From NCBI GenBank assembly GCA_037444665.1, contig JBBILZ010000027.1, positions 1 to 32,306 on the forward strand: 32,306 nt of DNA. Direction: 5' to 3'. Numbering within the stretch: position 1 is the stretch's first letter; every line of letters starts with the position of its first letter. Made by a program: the position numbers and the translations under genes. Below the pieces are notes generated by a model. It was not told the DNA's origin, ran no database searches, and worked only from the letters and a program-made list of their open reading frames with translations. Source of the stretch: a candidate division WOR-3 bacterium. Lineage in GTDB: Bacteria; Hydrothermota; Tepidihabitantia; SM23-42; JAOAFX01. Positions 3,361 through 32,306 of this stretch are shown piece by piece.

Positions 3361-3447
3361 GTAGTTGCCCAATTTCCCGAAGGGATTCTCGTCCCATCGG
3401 GACGGAGCATTGGGCTCATTTTGGTGCTTGATAAATCAAGCAACTAC
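3361..3447. repeat. Inverted pair of GTAG-family REPs; the first copy is interrupted by a 33-nt insert
   Basis: GTAGTTGCCCAATTT[33 nt]ATTGGGC (3361-3415) and, on the minus strand, GTAGTTGCTTGATTTATCAAGC (3426-3447); same family as the 1261-1345 REPs. Confidence 0.75.
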
Positions 3448-29766: not shown

Positions 29767-31407
29767 TTATCTTCCAAATCTTTTATCCAGGTCATCAAGA
29801 TTTATTTTTATAACAATGGGTCTGCCATGCGGACAAATAAATGGATTTTCACAGGCAAAAAGTTTATCAATTAAACTCTGCATTTCTGCGGACGAGAGTC
29901 TTTGACCAGCCTTTATTGCCATCCTGCAGGCAATTATCTTTGCCAGTTCCTTTTTTTCATTCATAAAATTACCCAGATCGCCAATTTCACTGAAAAATCC
30001 CTCAAGGTCTTCTCTTGTTATCTTTGAATCAGATGGCAGTGTATCAATTACCAGGGTCCTACCAGAAAACTCTTTAAATTCAACACCTATTGATTTGAGC
30101 GTTTCTTTTGTGTGTTGATATATACGATATTCATCTGGTGTCAATTCAATGGTAATAGGAAAAAGAAGATGCTGTGCTGGTCCCCTGTTATTGAGAATAG
30201 ATTCATAGATAATTCTTTCGTGTGCAACATGCTGGTCAACAATTATCATACCCGTGCTGGTTTGAGCAAAGATATATGTATTGTGTAATTGCCAGAATTC
30301 TCCTGTTTCCTGCATCGCTGAAATGGGCTGGGCAGAATCGTGTGCCTGATATGATATTAAAGAATCCTGGACAAACCGAGCGTCTGGTTTTGCATCACCA
30401 GAAACAACCGGCTCAGAAGTATATTCTTTTACAACTGCGCGATGGAAAATTTTTTCTTTAATCGCCTGAGTCAACAAATCTATCACATACCTTTCCTCTT
30501 TTATCTTAACTTCACTCTTTGCCGGATGAATATTTACATCCAGTGACTGCGGAGGAATGTTGATATTTAAAAAAAATAGTGGCGGATTCTGAGGCTGTTG
30601 ATAAACTTCATTGATTATCCGCACAATACGCGGATATCTAACAGGCCTTGAGTTTACATAGATAAAATTAAAATTTGCCTTTTCATTAAAATCAGGAGGC
30701 GATAAAAAGCCATTAAAGGATATCTCACCGACTGACAATTCAAAGGGCAGTAATTTTTTAACAAGTGAATCAGGATAAATTTGCATCAACCTCATTTTTA
30801 GCGAATCTGCACAAGGGATATTTAAAATATTTCTGTTTGTATCAGATAATATAAAATGTACCTGGGGAGAAATCAATGCATAGGTTTTAACAACGTCAAT
30901 AATCAGGCGCTTTTCATACTCATCAGATTTCAAAAACTTCATACGGGCAGGTAGATTAAAGAAAAGATTGGACACCTTTATGCGGGTGCCCCTTTCACGA
31001 AATATATCAATAACCTGTTTACTACTCCCTGCCTCTACGCTAATCCTTGTTCCTTCATTACCATCAGAGGTTTCAAGTTCCAGCGAGGAAACATGGGCAA
31101 TGCTTGCCAGTGCCTCTCCGCGAAAACCAAATGTCTTAATATTTTCTATATCCTCAATATTTTCTATCTTACTTGTGGCATACCTTTCTAATGATAATAA
31201 GGCATCCTGCCTTGACATACCACAACCATCGTCATTCACCAGACATTTCTTTTTACCACCTGCTTCAATTTCTATTTCAATCCGTTTTGCACCCGCATCA
31301 AGAGAATTTTCAATCAATTCTTTTATCACTGAACTCGGACGAATAATGACCTCACCCGCAGCAATTTTTGAGCGGACTTCAGGTGAAAGGATTTTTATCC
31401 TGGGCAT
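29767..31407 (-). CDS. mutL: DNA mismatch repair endonuclease MutL
   Basis: IAAGEVI, KELIENSLDAGA, FGFRGEALASI, DVNIHPAK, DQHVAHERIIYE, CPHGRP; start placed at MPRIKIL (31407). Confidence 0.95.
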   Translation of the reverse strand: MPRIKILSPEVRSKIAAGEVIIRPSSVIKELIENSLDAGAKRIEIEIEAGGKKKCLVNDDGCGMSRQDALLSLERYATSKIENIEDIENIKTFGFRGEALASIAHVSSLELETSDGNEGTRISVEAGSSKQVIDIFRERGTRIKVSNLFFNLPARMKFLKSDEYEKRLIIDVVKTYALISPQVHFILSDTNRNILNIPCADSLKMRLMQIYPDSLVKKLLPFELSVGEISFNGFLSPPDFNEKANFNFIYVNSRPVRYPRIVRIINEVYQQPQNPPLFFLNINIPPQSLDVNIHPAKSEVKIKEERYVIDLLTQAIKEKIFHRAVVKEYTSEPVVSGDAKPDARFVQDSLISYQAHDSAQPISAMQETGEFWQLHNTYIFAQTSTGMIIVDQHVAHERIIYESILNNRGPAQHLLFPITIELTPDEYRIYQHTKETLKSIGVEFKEFSGRTLVIDTLPSDSKITREDLEGFFSEIGDLGNFMNEKKELAKIIACRMAIKAGQRLSSAEMQSLIDKLFACENPFICPHGRPIVIKINLDDLDKRFGR

Positions 31408-31412
31408 GGTAT

Positions 31413-31440
31413 ATTTTATAAAGTGCACAGGCAAAGTCAA
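31413..31440 (-). promoter_or_regulatory. Sigma70-type promoter for mutL (leaderless)
   Basis: Minus strand TTGACT-N16-TAAAAT, 5 nt before the ATG. Confidence 0.65.
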
Positions 31441-31461
31441 GCATTGCATTAAAAAATTGTA

Positions 31462-31489
31462 TTGACTTATGCCAATATTTTTATATAAT
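31462..31489 (+). promoter_or_regulatory. Sigma70-type promoter of the tRNA-Asn/GIY-YIG locus
   Basis: TTGACT-N16-TATAAT, 8 nt before the tRNA-Asn 5' remnant. Confidence 0.75.
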
Positions 31490-31497
31490 TAACTCAA

Positions 31498-31625
31498 TCC
31501 TCGGTAGCTTCAGCCTGAGGCTGACTCTGCCAGATGGCAGAGCAATGATAGTAGGGAAAAATTAACCTCAGGTGAAGTGGAGCATCCTCCGCCTAAGGCG
31601 GACTCGCCTCTGGCGAGGGCTGTTA
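31498..31625 (+). pseudogene. tRNA-Asn 5' half, interrupted by three inserts
   Basis: TCCTCGGTAGCT[33]CAATG[29]GTGGAGCATCC[30]GGCTGTTA; removing the inserts gives the first 36 nt of the intact tRNA at 31873. Confidence 0.85.
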
Positions 31626-31636
31626 GAGAGGTAGAA

Positions 31637-31882
31637 GTGTTTACAGTTTATGTAATTGAAAGTTTGAAGAATGGAAAAAGATATGTGGGTTTTACATCCA
31701 AACCGGTTAACCAAAGATTGAATGAACATAACCGGGGATGTAACAAGTGGGCAAGAGAGAATAGACCATTTAAGTTGGTCTATCAAGAGTTCTTTGACAA
31801 CGAAAAAGATGCCCGAAAACGAGAAGTTTTTTTAAAATCGGGTCAAGGAAGAAAATTATTAAACACTAAAATTCCTCGGTAG
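31637..31882 (+). CDS. Small stand-alone GIY-YIG nuclease (UPF0213/SLX1-like), 81 aa
   Basis: VYVIES...RYVGFT...RLNEHN...REVFLKSGQGR; GTG start after GAGAGG. Confidence 0.88.
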   Translation: MFTVYVIESLKNGKRYVGFTSKPVNQRLNEHNRGCNKWARENRPFKLVYQEFFDNEKDARKREVFLKSGQGRKLLNTKIPR

Positions 31883-31944
31883 CTCAATGGTGGAGCATCC
31901 GGCTGTTAACCGGAGGGTTGCAGGTTCGAGTCCTGCCCGAGGAG
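31873..31944 (+). tRNA. tRNA-Asn(GTT), intact copy without CCA
   Basis: Acceptor TCCTCGG/CCGAGGA, anticodon arm TCCGG-CTGTTAA-CCGGA, T arm GCAGG-TTCGAGT-CCTGC. Confidence 0.95.
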
Positions 31945-31950
31945 TTATTT

Positions 31951-32220
31951 ATGACCATCATGTCATATTTTGTTTATATCCTGCGTTCAGTTTCAACCGG
32001 GAAAATATATATCGGTCATACAATGAATCTACAACATAGAATTGCACAGCATAATGATTTAAACAATAGATTGACACTTCATACCAAGAGGAATACTGGC
32101 CCCTGGGAAGTGCTCTATTATGAAGAATATAAAACAAGAGCTGAAGCAATGAGGCGTGAGCGATTTTTGAAAACAGGCCACGGACGGAATTTTATTCATA
32201 GAGTGGTGTTAAAAAAATAG
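31951..32220 (+). CDS. Small stand-alone GIY-YIG nuclease (UPF0213/SLX1-like), 89 aa
   Basis: VYILRS...IYIGHT...RIAQHN...RERFLKTGHGR; ATG 31951 (alternative start 31960). Confidence 0.88.
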   Translation: MTIMSYFVYILRSVSTGKIYIGHTMNLQHRIAQHNDLNNRLTLHTKRNTGPWEVLYYEEYKTRAEAMRRERFLKTGHGRNFIHRVVLKK

Positions 32221-32222
32221 TA

Positions 32223-32281
32223 TTAACCGGAGGGTTGTTCGCCATACAGTGTGGCGAATTCGAGTCCTGCCCGAGGAGCCA
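32223..32281 (+). pseudogene. tRNA-Asn 3' half with hairpin substitution and encoded CCA
   Basis: TTAACCGGAGGGTTG[TTCGCCATACAGTGTGGCGAA replacing CAGG]TTCGAGTCCTGCCCGAGGAGCCA. Confidence 0.85.
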
Positions 32282-32306
32282 GATTGAACGATTTTTCAAA
32301 CCTATA

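Follow-up and report, generated by a model that had tools for sequence, protein, structure and literature searches.

Several described systems pair a small nuclease gene with DNA hairpins, or are tied to transfer RNA (tRNA) genes. The IS200/IS605 and REP/RAYT systems combine a small HUH nuclease gene with hairpins that are recognised as single-stranded DNA (ssDNA), many of the hairpin copies having no open reading frame (ORF); Seg proteins carry a DNA-binding domain, and tRNA-integrating islands prefer the anticodon-loop and T-loop sublocations of their target. In such islands the target is regenerated and a fragment of it is displaced, as described in the Islander work (PMC4383910). SegB is a free-standing GIY-YIG homing endonuclease in the tRNA cluster of phage T4 (PMC2330249) and is described as amplifying tRNA loci (PMC13096335), while a survey of the superfamily from 2006 presents prokaryotic SLX1-like proteins as its minimal stand-alone form, with one fusion to a TrmH-like tRNA G18 methylase (PMC1564403). 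The Ssn family (cd10448) comprises single-domain GIY-YIG proteins of 94 amino acids (aa), described as site-specific ssDNA nucleases that bind and cut beside hairpin repeats (NTS/SRM) flanking their own gene, an architecture likened to an insertion sequence (Chenal et al. 2025, PMC11893778); the main text of that article nowhere uses the word tRNA. Here we analyse the whole of contig JBBILZ010000027.1 from a candidate division WOR-3 bacterium (32,306 nucleotides, nt; hereafter the window), at the end of which an intact tRNA-Asn gene lies between two small GIY-YIG genes, GIY1 and GIY2, and these in turn between two tRNA-Asn-like pieces.

We put a probability of roughly 60% on the reading that the resident tRNA-Asn has been colonised on both sides by two different integrase-free mini-cassettes in a "regenerate-and-displace" manner, and two independent cassettes fit better than one cassette splitting an ancestral tRNA. 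Full-text searches found no paper on small GIY-YIG genes bracketed by partial tRNA copies. An interpretation made previously from the letters of the DNA (the sequence-only reading) knew of no formal description of the system; this has to be corrected, the Ssn family being a close precedent for the protein and its hairpins, but not, as far as the main text of that work goes, for the tRNA setting.

Anatomy of the tRNA-Asn locus

The window is the complete contig (C27) of a 120-contig, 2.54-Mb assembly (G000; 37.7% G+C, 99.5% complete). The order of the locus is promoter, tRNA-Asn-like 5' piece, GIY1 (81 aa), intact tRNA-Asn, GIY2 (89 aa) and tRNA-Asn-like 3' piece, and direct inspection, ARAGORN, Rfam and Pfam recovered every part that the sequence-only reading had listed, at the positions it gave. 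At the centre stands the intact resident tRNA-Asn(GTT) (31873-31944, + strand; called by ARAGORN; Rfam RF00005, 70.6 bits), which encodes no CCA; the assembly has 49 tRNAs and no other tRNA-Asn. A sigma-70-type promoter (TTGACT-16 nt-TATAAT, 31462-31489, + strand, 11/12 matches) is the sole strong promoter on the + strand of 31300-32306, and no terminator was found in the promoter/terminator scan of the same interval. The spacing of 8 nt between the -10 box and the 5' piece equals that of tRNA-Arg, as had been noted, and the cassettes do sit behind the tRNA promoter.

The leader of the upstream cassette (31498-31636, + strand), delimited from the sequence and repeats D6/D9, opens with a copy of tRNA-Asn nt 1-12 (31498-31509) and two hairpins (31510-31524 and 31525-31542), continues with CAATG, a 29-nt filler and a copy of the 3' part of the D arm, GTGGAGCATCC (31577-31587), and ends with two more hairpins (31588-31602 and 31603-31617), GGCTGTTA (31618-31625) and a Shine-Dalgarno-like GAGAGG (31626-31631). 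The tRNA-like 5' piece proper (31498-31625) is 128 nt long, a length accounted for by the four perfect hairpins of 6-7 base pairs and the filler. It matches the tRNA in blocks only (nt 1-12, CAATG, GTGGAGCATCC and GGCTGTTA), and its exact repeats with the inner gene are of 12 nt (31498-31509 = 31873-31884) and 11 nt (31577-31587 = 31890-31900). GIY1 follows (31637-31882, + strand; PF01541, E 3e-15), with a likely GTG start at 31637 preceded by the GAGAGG and a TAG stop (31880-31882) that lies within the tRNA, its last codons (I-P-R-stop) coming from tRNA-Asn nt 1-10.

Beyond the tRNA lies GIY2 (31951-32220, + strand; PF01541, E 6e-17), a single-domain gene of another clade than GIY1. The trailer of this downstream cassette (32223-32281, 59 nt, + strand; repeats D1 and D2, inverted repeat I11) consists of a copy of tRNA-Asn nt 35-49 (32223-32237, identical over 15 nt to 31906-31920), a 21-nt hairpin TTCGCCA-N7-TGGCGAA (32238-32258) that takes the place of the T-stem CAGG, the stretch from the T loop to the 3' end (32259-32278, 20 bases repeated exactly in the inner tRNA as the 3' end of repeat D1) and a terminal CCA. 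No Rfam family was found for the leader or the trailers. In terms of the tRNA, the outer 5' piece stops and the outer 3' piece starts in the anticodon loop, where the two share TTA; no outer tRNA is called by ARAGORN or Rfam, and with hairpins and filler inside them these pieces are not the plain tRNA halves first taken for granted.

The last 25 nt of the window, past the 3' piece (32282-32306, + strand; repeat D4), resemble the E-R-F-L-K-coding part of GIY2, with 88% identity over 16 nt between 32285-32300 and 32157-32172, which suggests a further truncated GIY copy beyond the contig end. A unitig of the probable source run continues for 327 nt past that end.

Concerning introns, a group I intron core (RF00028) gave no match up to E 10 in 31300-32306, and no intron remnant is present there. 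The earlier statement that the locus is intron-free is correct for the window and wrong for relatives, since group I introns occupy the anticodon loop of tRNA-Asn, at CTGT^TAA, in a genome of the same genus (G006, L008:188-490, 87.6 bits) and in G038 (L011:1555-1826, 103.7 bits). This intron site is compatible with the meeting point of the outer pieces of the window.

Both proteins score far above the curated PF01541 cut-off of 22.6 bits (56.7 and 62.2 bits), and the GIY-YIG domain fills nearly the whole of each; neither Pfam nor the AlphaFold2 model has a separate DNA-binding domain or residues beyond the catalytic domain. They are as divergent as was claimed, with 32% identity over 79 aa and a placement in different clades. 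The model of GIY1 (predicted local distance difference test, pLDDT, 93.7) has three strands and four helices (E2-9, E15-20, H24-33, H37-42, E45-53, H56-67, H69-78), and Foldseek finds UPF0213 BH0048 and SLX1/At-HIGLE as its nearest structures (query TM-score, TMq, ~0.7), with I-TevI at 0.58. A sequence search of solved structures agrees with the fold, the nearest being UPF0213 (E 1e-6) and SLX1, and NCBIfam yields nothing beyond weak similarity of the N-terminus to TIGR01453, an intron endonuclease model (16.9-23 bits, cut-off 56). By sequence and predicted fold GIY1 and GIY2 appear to be SLX1/UPF0213-like minimal nucleases, resembling the Ssn ssDNA nucleases.

Residues Y5, Y16, R27, H31, N32 and E63 are invariant in six GIY1 orthologues. 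In 14 of the 15 pairs among these six, the proportion of nonsynonymous differences (pN) is 0.17-0.28 and that of synonymous differences (pS) 0.66-0.91, that is, saturated; the close pair L011/L012 gives 0.021/0.055. Because pN is far below pS, the GIY1 ORF is under purifying selection. No promoter of their own was found for the GIY genes, hence their expression presumably depends on read-through from the tRNA promoter. RNA runs contained only 0.05-0.06 of the sampled words.

Empty alleles and population variants

The gene mutL (29767-31449, - strand; Pfam MutL_C, DNA_mis_repair and HATPase_c_3) is the divergent neighbour of the locus and marks it in relatives. In G008, whose MutL N-terminus is 98% identical to that of the window, the same promoter, without any change, runs straight into a single, complete tRNA-Asn followed by TTATTTA, and both the tRNA sequence and this 3' flank are those of the inner tRNA of the window. 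The simple arrangement of promoter and complete tRNA-Asn is also found in G009 (80% identical), so that the empty single-tRNA alleles beside mutL which the sequence-only reading had looked forward to do exist. Compared with G008 the window has two extras, namely the 375-nt segment of leader and GIY1 (31510-31884, + strand), bounded by the 12-nt direct repeat TCCTCGGTAGCT that equals tRNA nt 1-12, and a second segment that starts immediately behind TTATTTA. What follows the tRNA in G008 is found, with 97.5% identity, on another contig of the assembly, C1, at position 3396.

Since promoter, tRNA and 3' flank match those of G008 and the ancestral downstream flank lies on C1 at 3396, the inner tRNA is the resident gene and the CCA-bearing outer piece is not the ancestral end; of the outer 5' piece, tRNA nt 1-12 alone can be ancestral. 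The idea that the outer halves, and in particular the 3' half with its CCA, represent the ancestral gene is therefore abandoned. The derived state is not decidable from the window and G008 alone; the presence of the simple state at mutL in two species of the genus favours insertion.

Between the tRNA-Asn complex and the ancestral downstream OmpA-family gene lies a stretch that is absent from G008 (C1 1-3395, L110); it encodes an N6/N4 methylase and an R.HinP1I-like restriction endonuclease and has two inverted, excisionase-like HTH_17 genes. Next to the ancestral flank, at about 3360-3395 of C1, are the decayed remains of a tRNA-Asn 3' end, likewise absent from G008.

Logan unitigs give a view of the populations. 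In the probable source run (X1) the locus is covered by unitigs over 31300-31909 (a 4791-nt unitig, 18.7x), 31923-32252 (5.1x) and 32223-32306 (17.5x), and in a run from an independent study (X2) over 31477-31902 (12.5x) and 31915-32278 (10.3x). The tRNA core (about 31909-31923), common to many organisms and with a depth above 1000, is not spanned by any unitig. Beside the occupied form at 12.5x, X2 contains at 5x a joint 31497>31873 that skips 375 nt with an overlap of 12, i.e. an empty allele coexists with the occupied one. A second joint, 31622>32223 (600 nt skipped, overlap 3), is present in X1 (12.4x) and in two further runs, X3 and X4, and connects the outer pieces across the anticodon loop; to this extent the outer pieces do rebuild one form, in DNA of three runs. 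As the GIY2 path (5.1x) and the joined path (12.4x) of X1 add up to the 17.5x of their common continuation, GIY2 is a minority allele in the source population. X3 and X4 hold a close strain in which leader and GIY1 are present (4787-nt unitig, 22 differences) and GIY2 is uncovered; the joined piece is carried there by a 186-nt unitig, on which it follows the tRNA after a spacer of 16 nt. Between this strain and the window the hairpin 31525-31542 differs at two base pairs, both changes being fully compensatory (31528 T>C with 31539 A>G; 31529 G>A with 31538 C>T).

These depths bear on the question of whether the assembly fused distinct tRNA-Asn loci or strains at the tRNA sequence that they have in common. 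The missing unitig across the core, the low depth of GIY2 in X1 with respect to its flanks (5.1x vs 17.5-18.7x) and the contig end 25 nt past the trailer would all fit such an assembly artefact. We nevertheless regard it as very improbable: both halves are found at similar depth in the independent run, the 3' flank of the inner tRNA is that of the mutL-linked tRNA in G008, the arrangement GIY-tRNA-Asn-GIY emerged independently from the assemblies of three further genomes, which belong to two other families (L012, L013, L017), and an assembly that is 99.5% complete contains only this tRNA-Asn.

The joined form is also what a single mobile cassette would lead one to expect, in which GIY1, GIY2 and a tRNA-Asn of their own were inserted together in the anticodon loop of an ancestral tRNA-Asn, the outer pieces being its remains. 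The TTA overlap in the anticodon loop, the 600-nt skip in X1, X3 and X4 and the compatibility with the intron site CTGT^TAA of relatives agree with this explanation, essentially that of the sequence-only reading, and yet it has little to commend it once the relatives are considered. Promoter and complete tRNA stand here in G008 and G009, with the TTATTTA flank of the inner tRNA in the former, and the ancestral downstream flank is found beside the decayed tRNA remnant on C1, not after the CCA piece. The two units occur separately, the upstream one alone in L020 and the downstream one alone in L007, L008 and L019; X3/X4 have GIY1 without GIY2, and their joined pseudo-tRNA piece comes after the tRNA, and in X1 GIY2 is on the minority path. 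Finally, the leader hairpins are conserved with covariation over saturated synonymous divergence and therefore are not decay products. Two cassettes that settled independently beside one resident tRNA-Asn remain our preferred reading.

Recurrence within the genome, in relatives and across phyla

A PF01541 search of the genome returned UvrC and four small genes. All four small genes adjoin tRNA-Asn (two), tRNA-Gly or transfer-messenger RNA (tmRNA), and each is preceded or followed by a hairpin-bearing partial copy of its RNA, in a genome of which about 0.8%, as inferred from the tRNA count, lies within 150 nt of a tRNA. The third gene is located directly downstream of tRNA-Gly(GCC) (contig C22) and the fourth directly downstream of tmRNA (C25); after both comes a copy of the T arm and 3' end of the respective RNA, with the hairpins after GGGTT at tRNA-Gly and in place of the 3' strand of the T stem at tmRNA. 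Downstream of tRNA-Pro(CGG) (C40) and tRNA-Pro(TGG) (C73) there is the same two-hairpin pseudo-T-arm, here without an ORF. G008, for which the search for small homologues gave no match at all to small GIY-YIG genes (0 copies vs 4 here), has the corresponding empty sites, with 340 nt missing at tRNA-Gly (28-nt overlap) and both GIY gene and pseudo-copy missing at tmRNA; its ORF-less module is missing at tRNA-Pro(TGG) (105-nt indel, 24-nt overlap) and present at tRNA-Pro(CGG). The duplicated stretch at tRNA-Gly and tmRNA reaches 10 and 27 nt, respectively, past the RNA into the local flank.

Small perfect GC-rich hairpins number 1143 in the whole genome, against 261 in a shuffle, and include families seen in the leader, TCCGCC-N3-GGCGGA, CTCTGCC..GGCAGAG, TTCGCC-TCT-GGCGAA and CCGCCA-N7-TGGCGG (26 copies), often clustered between genes in the manner of REP sequences (e.g. 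C25:1600-1670 and C2:37130-37165). At tRNA-Leu(CAA) (C21:39781-39975, C85:1-181) about 155 nt are followed by a second copy of the last 19 nt plus flank; its starting point in the T loop is that of the displaced T-arm copies elsewhere, and there is no GIY gene. A 91-nt tRNA-Lys(ttt) called by ARAGORN at C19:29470-29560, AT-rich and with its anticodon at position 32, looks false.

Small homologues of GIY2 occur in 33 of 41 related genomes. Among the best 29 loci from other genomes, one per genome (L007-L035), 14 have a tRNA or tmRNA within 150 nt, 12 by ARAGORN calls and 2 as intron-split tRNA-Asn seen by eye, with the group I intron confirmed by Rfam. In G002 and G006 the genes that immediately follow tRNA-Asn are 72% and 65% identical to GIY2, and the same trailer is present with a conserved stem and a variable loop. 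In both genomes another unit begins behind the GIY2-fragment units, on the far side of a gap of N in the assembly, G002 additionally ending in a truncated GIY start; arrays, as anticipated from the window, are thus real. The leader design is conserved upstream of the GIY1 orthologues in L011, L012, L013, L017 and L020, the hairpin TCAGCC-N-GAGGCTGA being kept in four of these five leaders and replaced by a longer stem-loop in L020, and a second hairpin has a stem that covaries among the orthologues. GIY1-type genes have a patchy distribution, with 8 genomes out of 49 in the order and 1 out of 12 in the genus. The second of the hairpins in the T-loop module has 9 occurrences, spread over 7 of the 49 genomes of the order, against 0 for a reversed control, and at tRNA-Val(CAC) the functional and displaced T-arm 3' strands of G033 and G030 (L114, L115) are swapped alleles.

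Some single loci deserve mention in their own right. G036 (L012:1700-1870) has two copies of the leader, one ahead of GIY1 and one, with no ORF, that separates GIY1 from the tRNA. In G044 and G021 (L116, L117) the hairpin module is preceded by no more of tRNA-Val than its 3' part, beginning at the anticodon loop, and ARAGORN makes no call there. Two small GIY ORFs without a nearby tRNA, in G018 (L010:1196-1474) and G033 (L014:1283-1540), are bracketed by inverted repeats of 11-13 nt (for example CCCGTTAGAGATA ... TATCTCTAACGGG), so that the loop of a long-range stem contains the ORF.

A profile of six GIY1 orthologues, applied to one genome per species, extended the scan to other phyla and yielded 36 loci at 47-69% identity, from Candidatus Stahlbacteria, many Patescibacteria, Omnitrophota, Planctomycetota, Pseudomonadota, Chloroflexota and others; GIY1-type proteins are 55-69% identical to genes of Patescibacteria, Omnitrophota and Pseudomonadota. 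Of the 36, 24 are followed on the same strand by a tRNA that begins no more than 130 nt away (14 Asn, 3 Pro, 3 Val and single cases of Ile, Phe, Ala and Gly). In 17 of these 24 the first 12-20 nt of the local tRNA are repeated exactly at 56-168 nt upstream of the ORF; one other locus has an 8-nt copy and six have none. In most copy-bearing loci 1-3 hairpins come next, then a few more tRNA bases and the ORF. The hairpins are of the types TCCGCC-N3-GGCGGA or YCAGCC-N3-GGCTGR (in general TCNNCC-N3-GGNNGA), with different, longer ones in L086, and are placed after nt 12, after nt 16-17 (D loop) or within the anticodon stem. Minimum free energy folds of 23 leaders have competing pairings between neighbouring hairpins, and the greedy hairpin counter, which misregistered several stems, was used for recurrent stem types only. 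Of 13 loci examined for the downstream type, whose hairpins lie within or next to the T loop, 7 repeat at least 10 nt of the tRNA 3' end exactly after the ORF; of the others, one has a visibly degenerate copy and one is cut by the contig end.

The link between small GIY-YIG genes and tRNA genes or fragments that the window had hinted at is therefore found in its own genome (4/4), in relatives (14/29) and across phyla (24/36). Taken as a whole, the sequence-only interpretation is supported as to tRNA association, empty alleles and arrays, and not supported as to an ancestral split tRNA and a single cassette. Two further candidates were considered and dropped. There is no sign of a phage vector, viral contigs giving one partial match among 55 candidate stretches, and no case for a defence system, PADLOC giving only weak partial matches (PDC-S14, UzuA, 15-20 bits).

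The phylogeny was derived from 59 small GIY proteins, after three truncated or X-bearing rows were dropped; L054, L058 and L077 (duplicates of the G036, G019 and G040 loci), L023, L026, L030 and L035 are omitted, as are four cross-phylum loci, three truncated by a contig end and one a partial match. Upstream-type proteins form nearly one group (2 changes), in which GIY1 of the window and four other sequences of the WOR-3 order make up a clade (92/92) among Patescibacteria, Omnitrophota and Pseudomonadota. Downstream types fall into separate clades with one RNA each (tmRNA; Gly/Asp; Asn), GIY2 grouping with G002 and G006 at 100/100. By eye, each of four downstream clades and the upstream group has its own hairpin type; nuclease clade, target RNA and hairpin type are thus paired in the four inspected downstream clades and in the upstream group.

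This pairing is relevant for the explanation that the loci are miniature islands moved in trans by a tyrosine or other recombinase, with the GIY genes as cargo and the hairpins as recombinase sites. Their signature is that of integrase-borne islands as described in PMC4383910, and an island with excisionase-like HTH_17 genes and a restriction-modification system lies further downstream; even so, we hold a role as mere cargo to be decidedly unlikely. No integrase was found in the cassettes or beside any cassette inspected, and a Pfam search of the ORFs of C1:1-3395 gave HTH_17, the R.HinP1I-like enzyme and the methylase only. PF00589 detects two full-length proteins of Xer-like size (301 and 314 aa) and a fragment in the genome, all on other contigs and none near. 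Moreover, hairpin type follows the nuclease clade and not the genome, and the same design recurs in many phyla, always with a GIY gene.

Somewhat less unlikely, though well short of our preferred reading, is a domesticated role, in which nucleases and hairpins serve the cell, either by modulating recombination or transformation, as proposed for Neisseria SsnA/NTS, or in tRNA metabolism, the tRNA sites merely lending strong promoters. Strong purifying selection, invariant catalytic residues and saturated synonymous divergence speak for such a role, as do the genome-wide excess of small GC hairpins, the Ssn precedent (PMC11893778) and the fusion of a GIY-YIG domain to a TrmH-like tRNA G18 methylase noted in the survey cited above (PMC1564403). 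Against it stand the patchy occurrence in order and genus, the four copies here with none in the 98%-identical G008, the polymorphism within populations, and the tandem arrays and truncated copies; borrowing a promoter, in addition, needs no partial tRNA copies.

A cassette model and its place among known systems

The observations can be brought together in a model of colonisation by cassettes. A cassette consists of a minimal GIY-YIG gene, one or more short perfect GC-rich hairpins and a partial tRNA copy that embeds them, with the intact tRNA always across the ORF from the partial copy. In the upstream type (GIY1) a copy of the tRNA from nt 1 to a position S is followed by hairpins, a few tRNA bases, a ribosome-binding site, the ORF and the intact tRNA; the downstream type (GIY2 and the tRNA-Gly, tRNA-Asp and tmRNA cassettes) is built the other way round, and its hairpins lie within or next to the T loop of the displaced 3' copy. 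Insertion is proposed to take place in the D arm (behind nt 12 or nt 16-17 of the copy), in the anticodon stem/loop and in the T loop at 55/56, and hairpin-only versions behave as non-autonomous derivatives. Mechanistically, the nuclease may recognise its own hairpins and the hairpin-like arms of the tRNA gene in ssDNA and nick beside them, as Ssn nucleases do. The nick could provoke recombination or gene conversion, by which the cassette would be copied, amplified or deleted while an intact tRNA is retained, and the hairpins might serve to break the homology between the partial copy and the real tRNA.

The anatomy of the cassettes, their recurrence across phyla and across tRNAs, the polymorphism bounded by tRNA-derived repeats and the ORF-less derivatives are observed. 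A broader generalisation is tentative and in our judgement falls somewhat short of even odds, namely that these loci represent a widespread, undescribed class of integrase-free mobile elements, in which a minimal GIY-YIG nuclease with cognate hairpins inserts in tRNA or tmRNA loops, the gene is regenerated by partial duplication, hairpin-only derivatives arise, and clades switch tRNA identities and phyla.

It should be noted that several points weigh against mobile cassettes. Nuclease activity, target and transfer are all inferred. Gain is indistinguishable from loss, because deletion between short direct repeats would yield the same empty alleles, and a classical homing endonuclease would lack target immunity here, because the occupied allele keeps an intact, unchanged tRNA that is identical in the empty allele. 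The ORFs are old and conserved, with saturated synonymous sites, which also fits a host-useful function. The linkage of GIY1 and GIY2 across the tRNA core rests on the original assembly, and 15 of the 29 relatives' loci and 12 of the 36 cross-phylum loci have no adjacent tRNA, some of them lying at contig ends. The published SRM motif of Ssn is not enriched, with 3 matches in the genome against 2-11 in shuffles and none at the GIY loci. As the duplication extends into the local flank, the copies at tRNA-Gly and tmRNA were made in place or exchanged between alleles of the same locus, and not carried between unrelated genomes. Lastly, the origin of the partial duplication and the placement of hairpins inside the displaced copy are not accounted for by the model.

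Two variants of the mechanism were given up. Partial copies acting as portable, tRNA-only homology arms were dropped as a general rule because the duplications at tRNA-Gly and tmRNA reach into the flank, and target duplication by a staggered cut does not explain hairpins within the duplicated copy.

If the cassette reading is true, tRNA genes are targeted by far smaller and simpler selfish elements than the known integrase-borne islands, and the short "GIY-YIG family" genes that are often found beside tRNAs in uncultured phyla have an explanation. It would also give the minimal bacterial nucleases of the SLX1, UPF0213 and Ssn kinds a genomic role and testable ssDNA substrates, i.e. the hairpins and the tRNA gene. 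From a practical point of view, partial tRNA copies and ORFs of 250 nt break assemblies and confuse tRNA annotation, and the nucleases might add specificities to the ssDNA-cutting toolbox opened by the Ssn work.

Among described systems, the islands of tRNA and tmRNA genes share with these loci a regenerated target and a displaced fragment at the far end, with junctions in the T loop (after position 55) and in the anticodon loop, and the swapped functional and displaced T-arm alleles at tRNA-Val in two genomes are of the same kind; the cassettes differ in measuring only 100-400 nt, in having no integrase, in existing also in a 5'-end version and in carrying hairpins inside the displaced fragment. 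Group I introns strike the same gene and loop in relatives (Rfam Intron_gpI, G038 and G006), whereas the window has no intron core and its tRNA is kept intact by duplication, not by splicing. With homing endonuclease genes in general the cassettes share presence/absence polymorphism at one locus (tRNA-Asn, tRNA-Gly and tmRNA in G008; the X2 joint). SegB in particular, as presented in PMC2330249 and PMC13096335, is likewise a GIY-YIG gene among tRNA genes, whose cleavage in tRNA-gene DNA drives inheritance and is accompanied by tandem amplification. Differences are the lack of a DNA-binding domain here, the cellular host, the partial tRNA duplications with hairpins, and a fold nearer to SLX1 than to I-TevI. 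IS200/IS605 and REP/RAYT also combine a small nuclease gene with hairpins and ORF-less hairpin copies, but have the HUH instead of the GIY-YIG fold and are not known to nest in tRNA genes or to regenerate a target.

The closest likeness is to Ssn as described in PMC11893778, which has in common with our loci a GIY-YIG-only protein of about 80-95 aa, a gene flanked by short GC-rich hairpins, and hairpin-only copies elsewhere. GIY1 and GIY2 are likened to Ssn by size, domain and hairpins, their nearest solved relatives being UPF0213 and SLX1. The hairpins described here, in contrast, deviate from the SRM search motif and are embedded in partial tRNA or tmRNA copies beside the intact gene.

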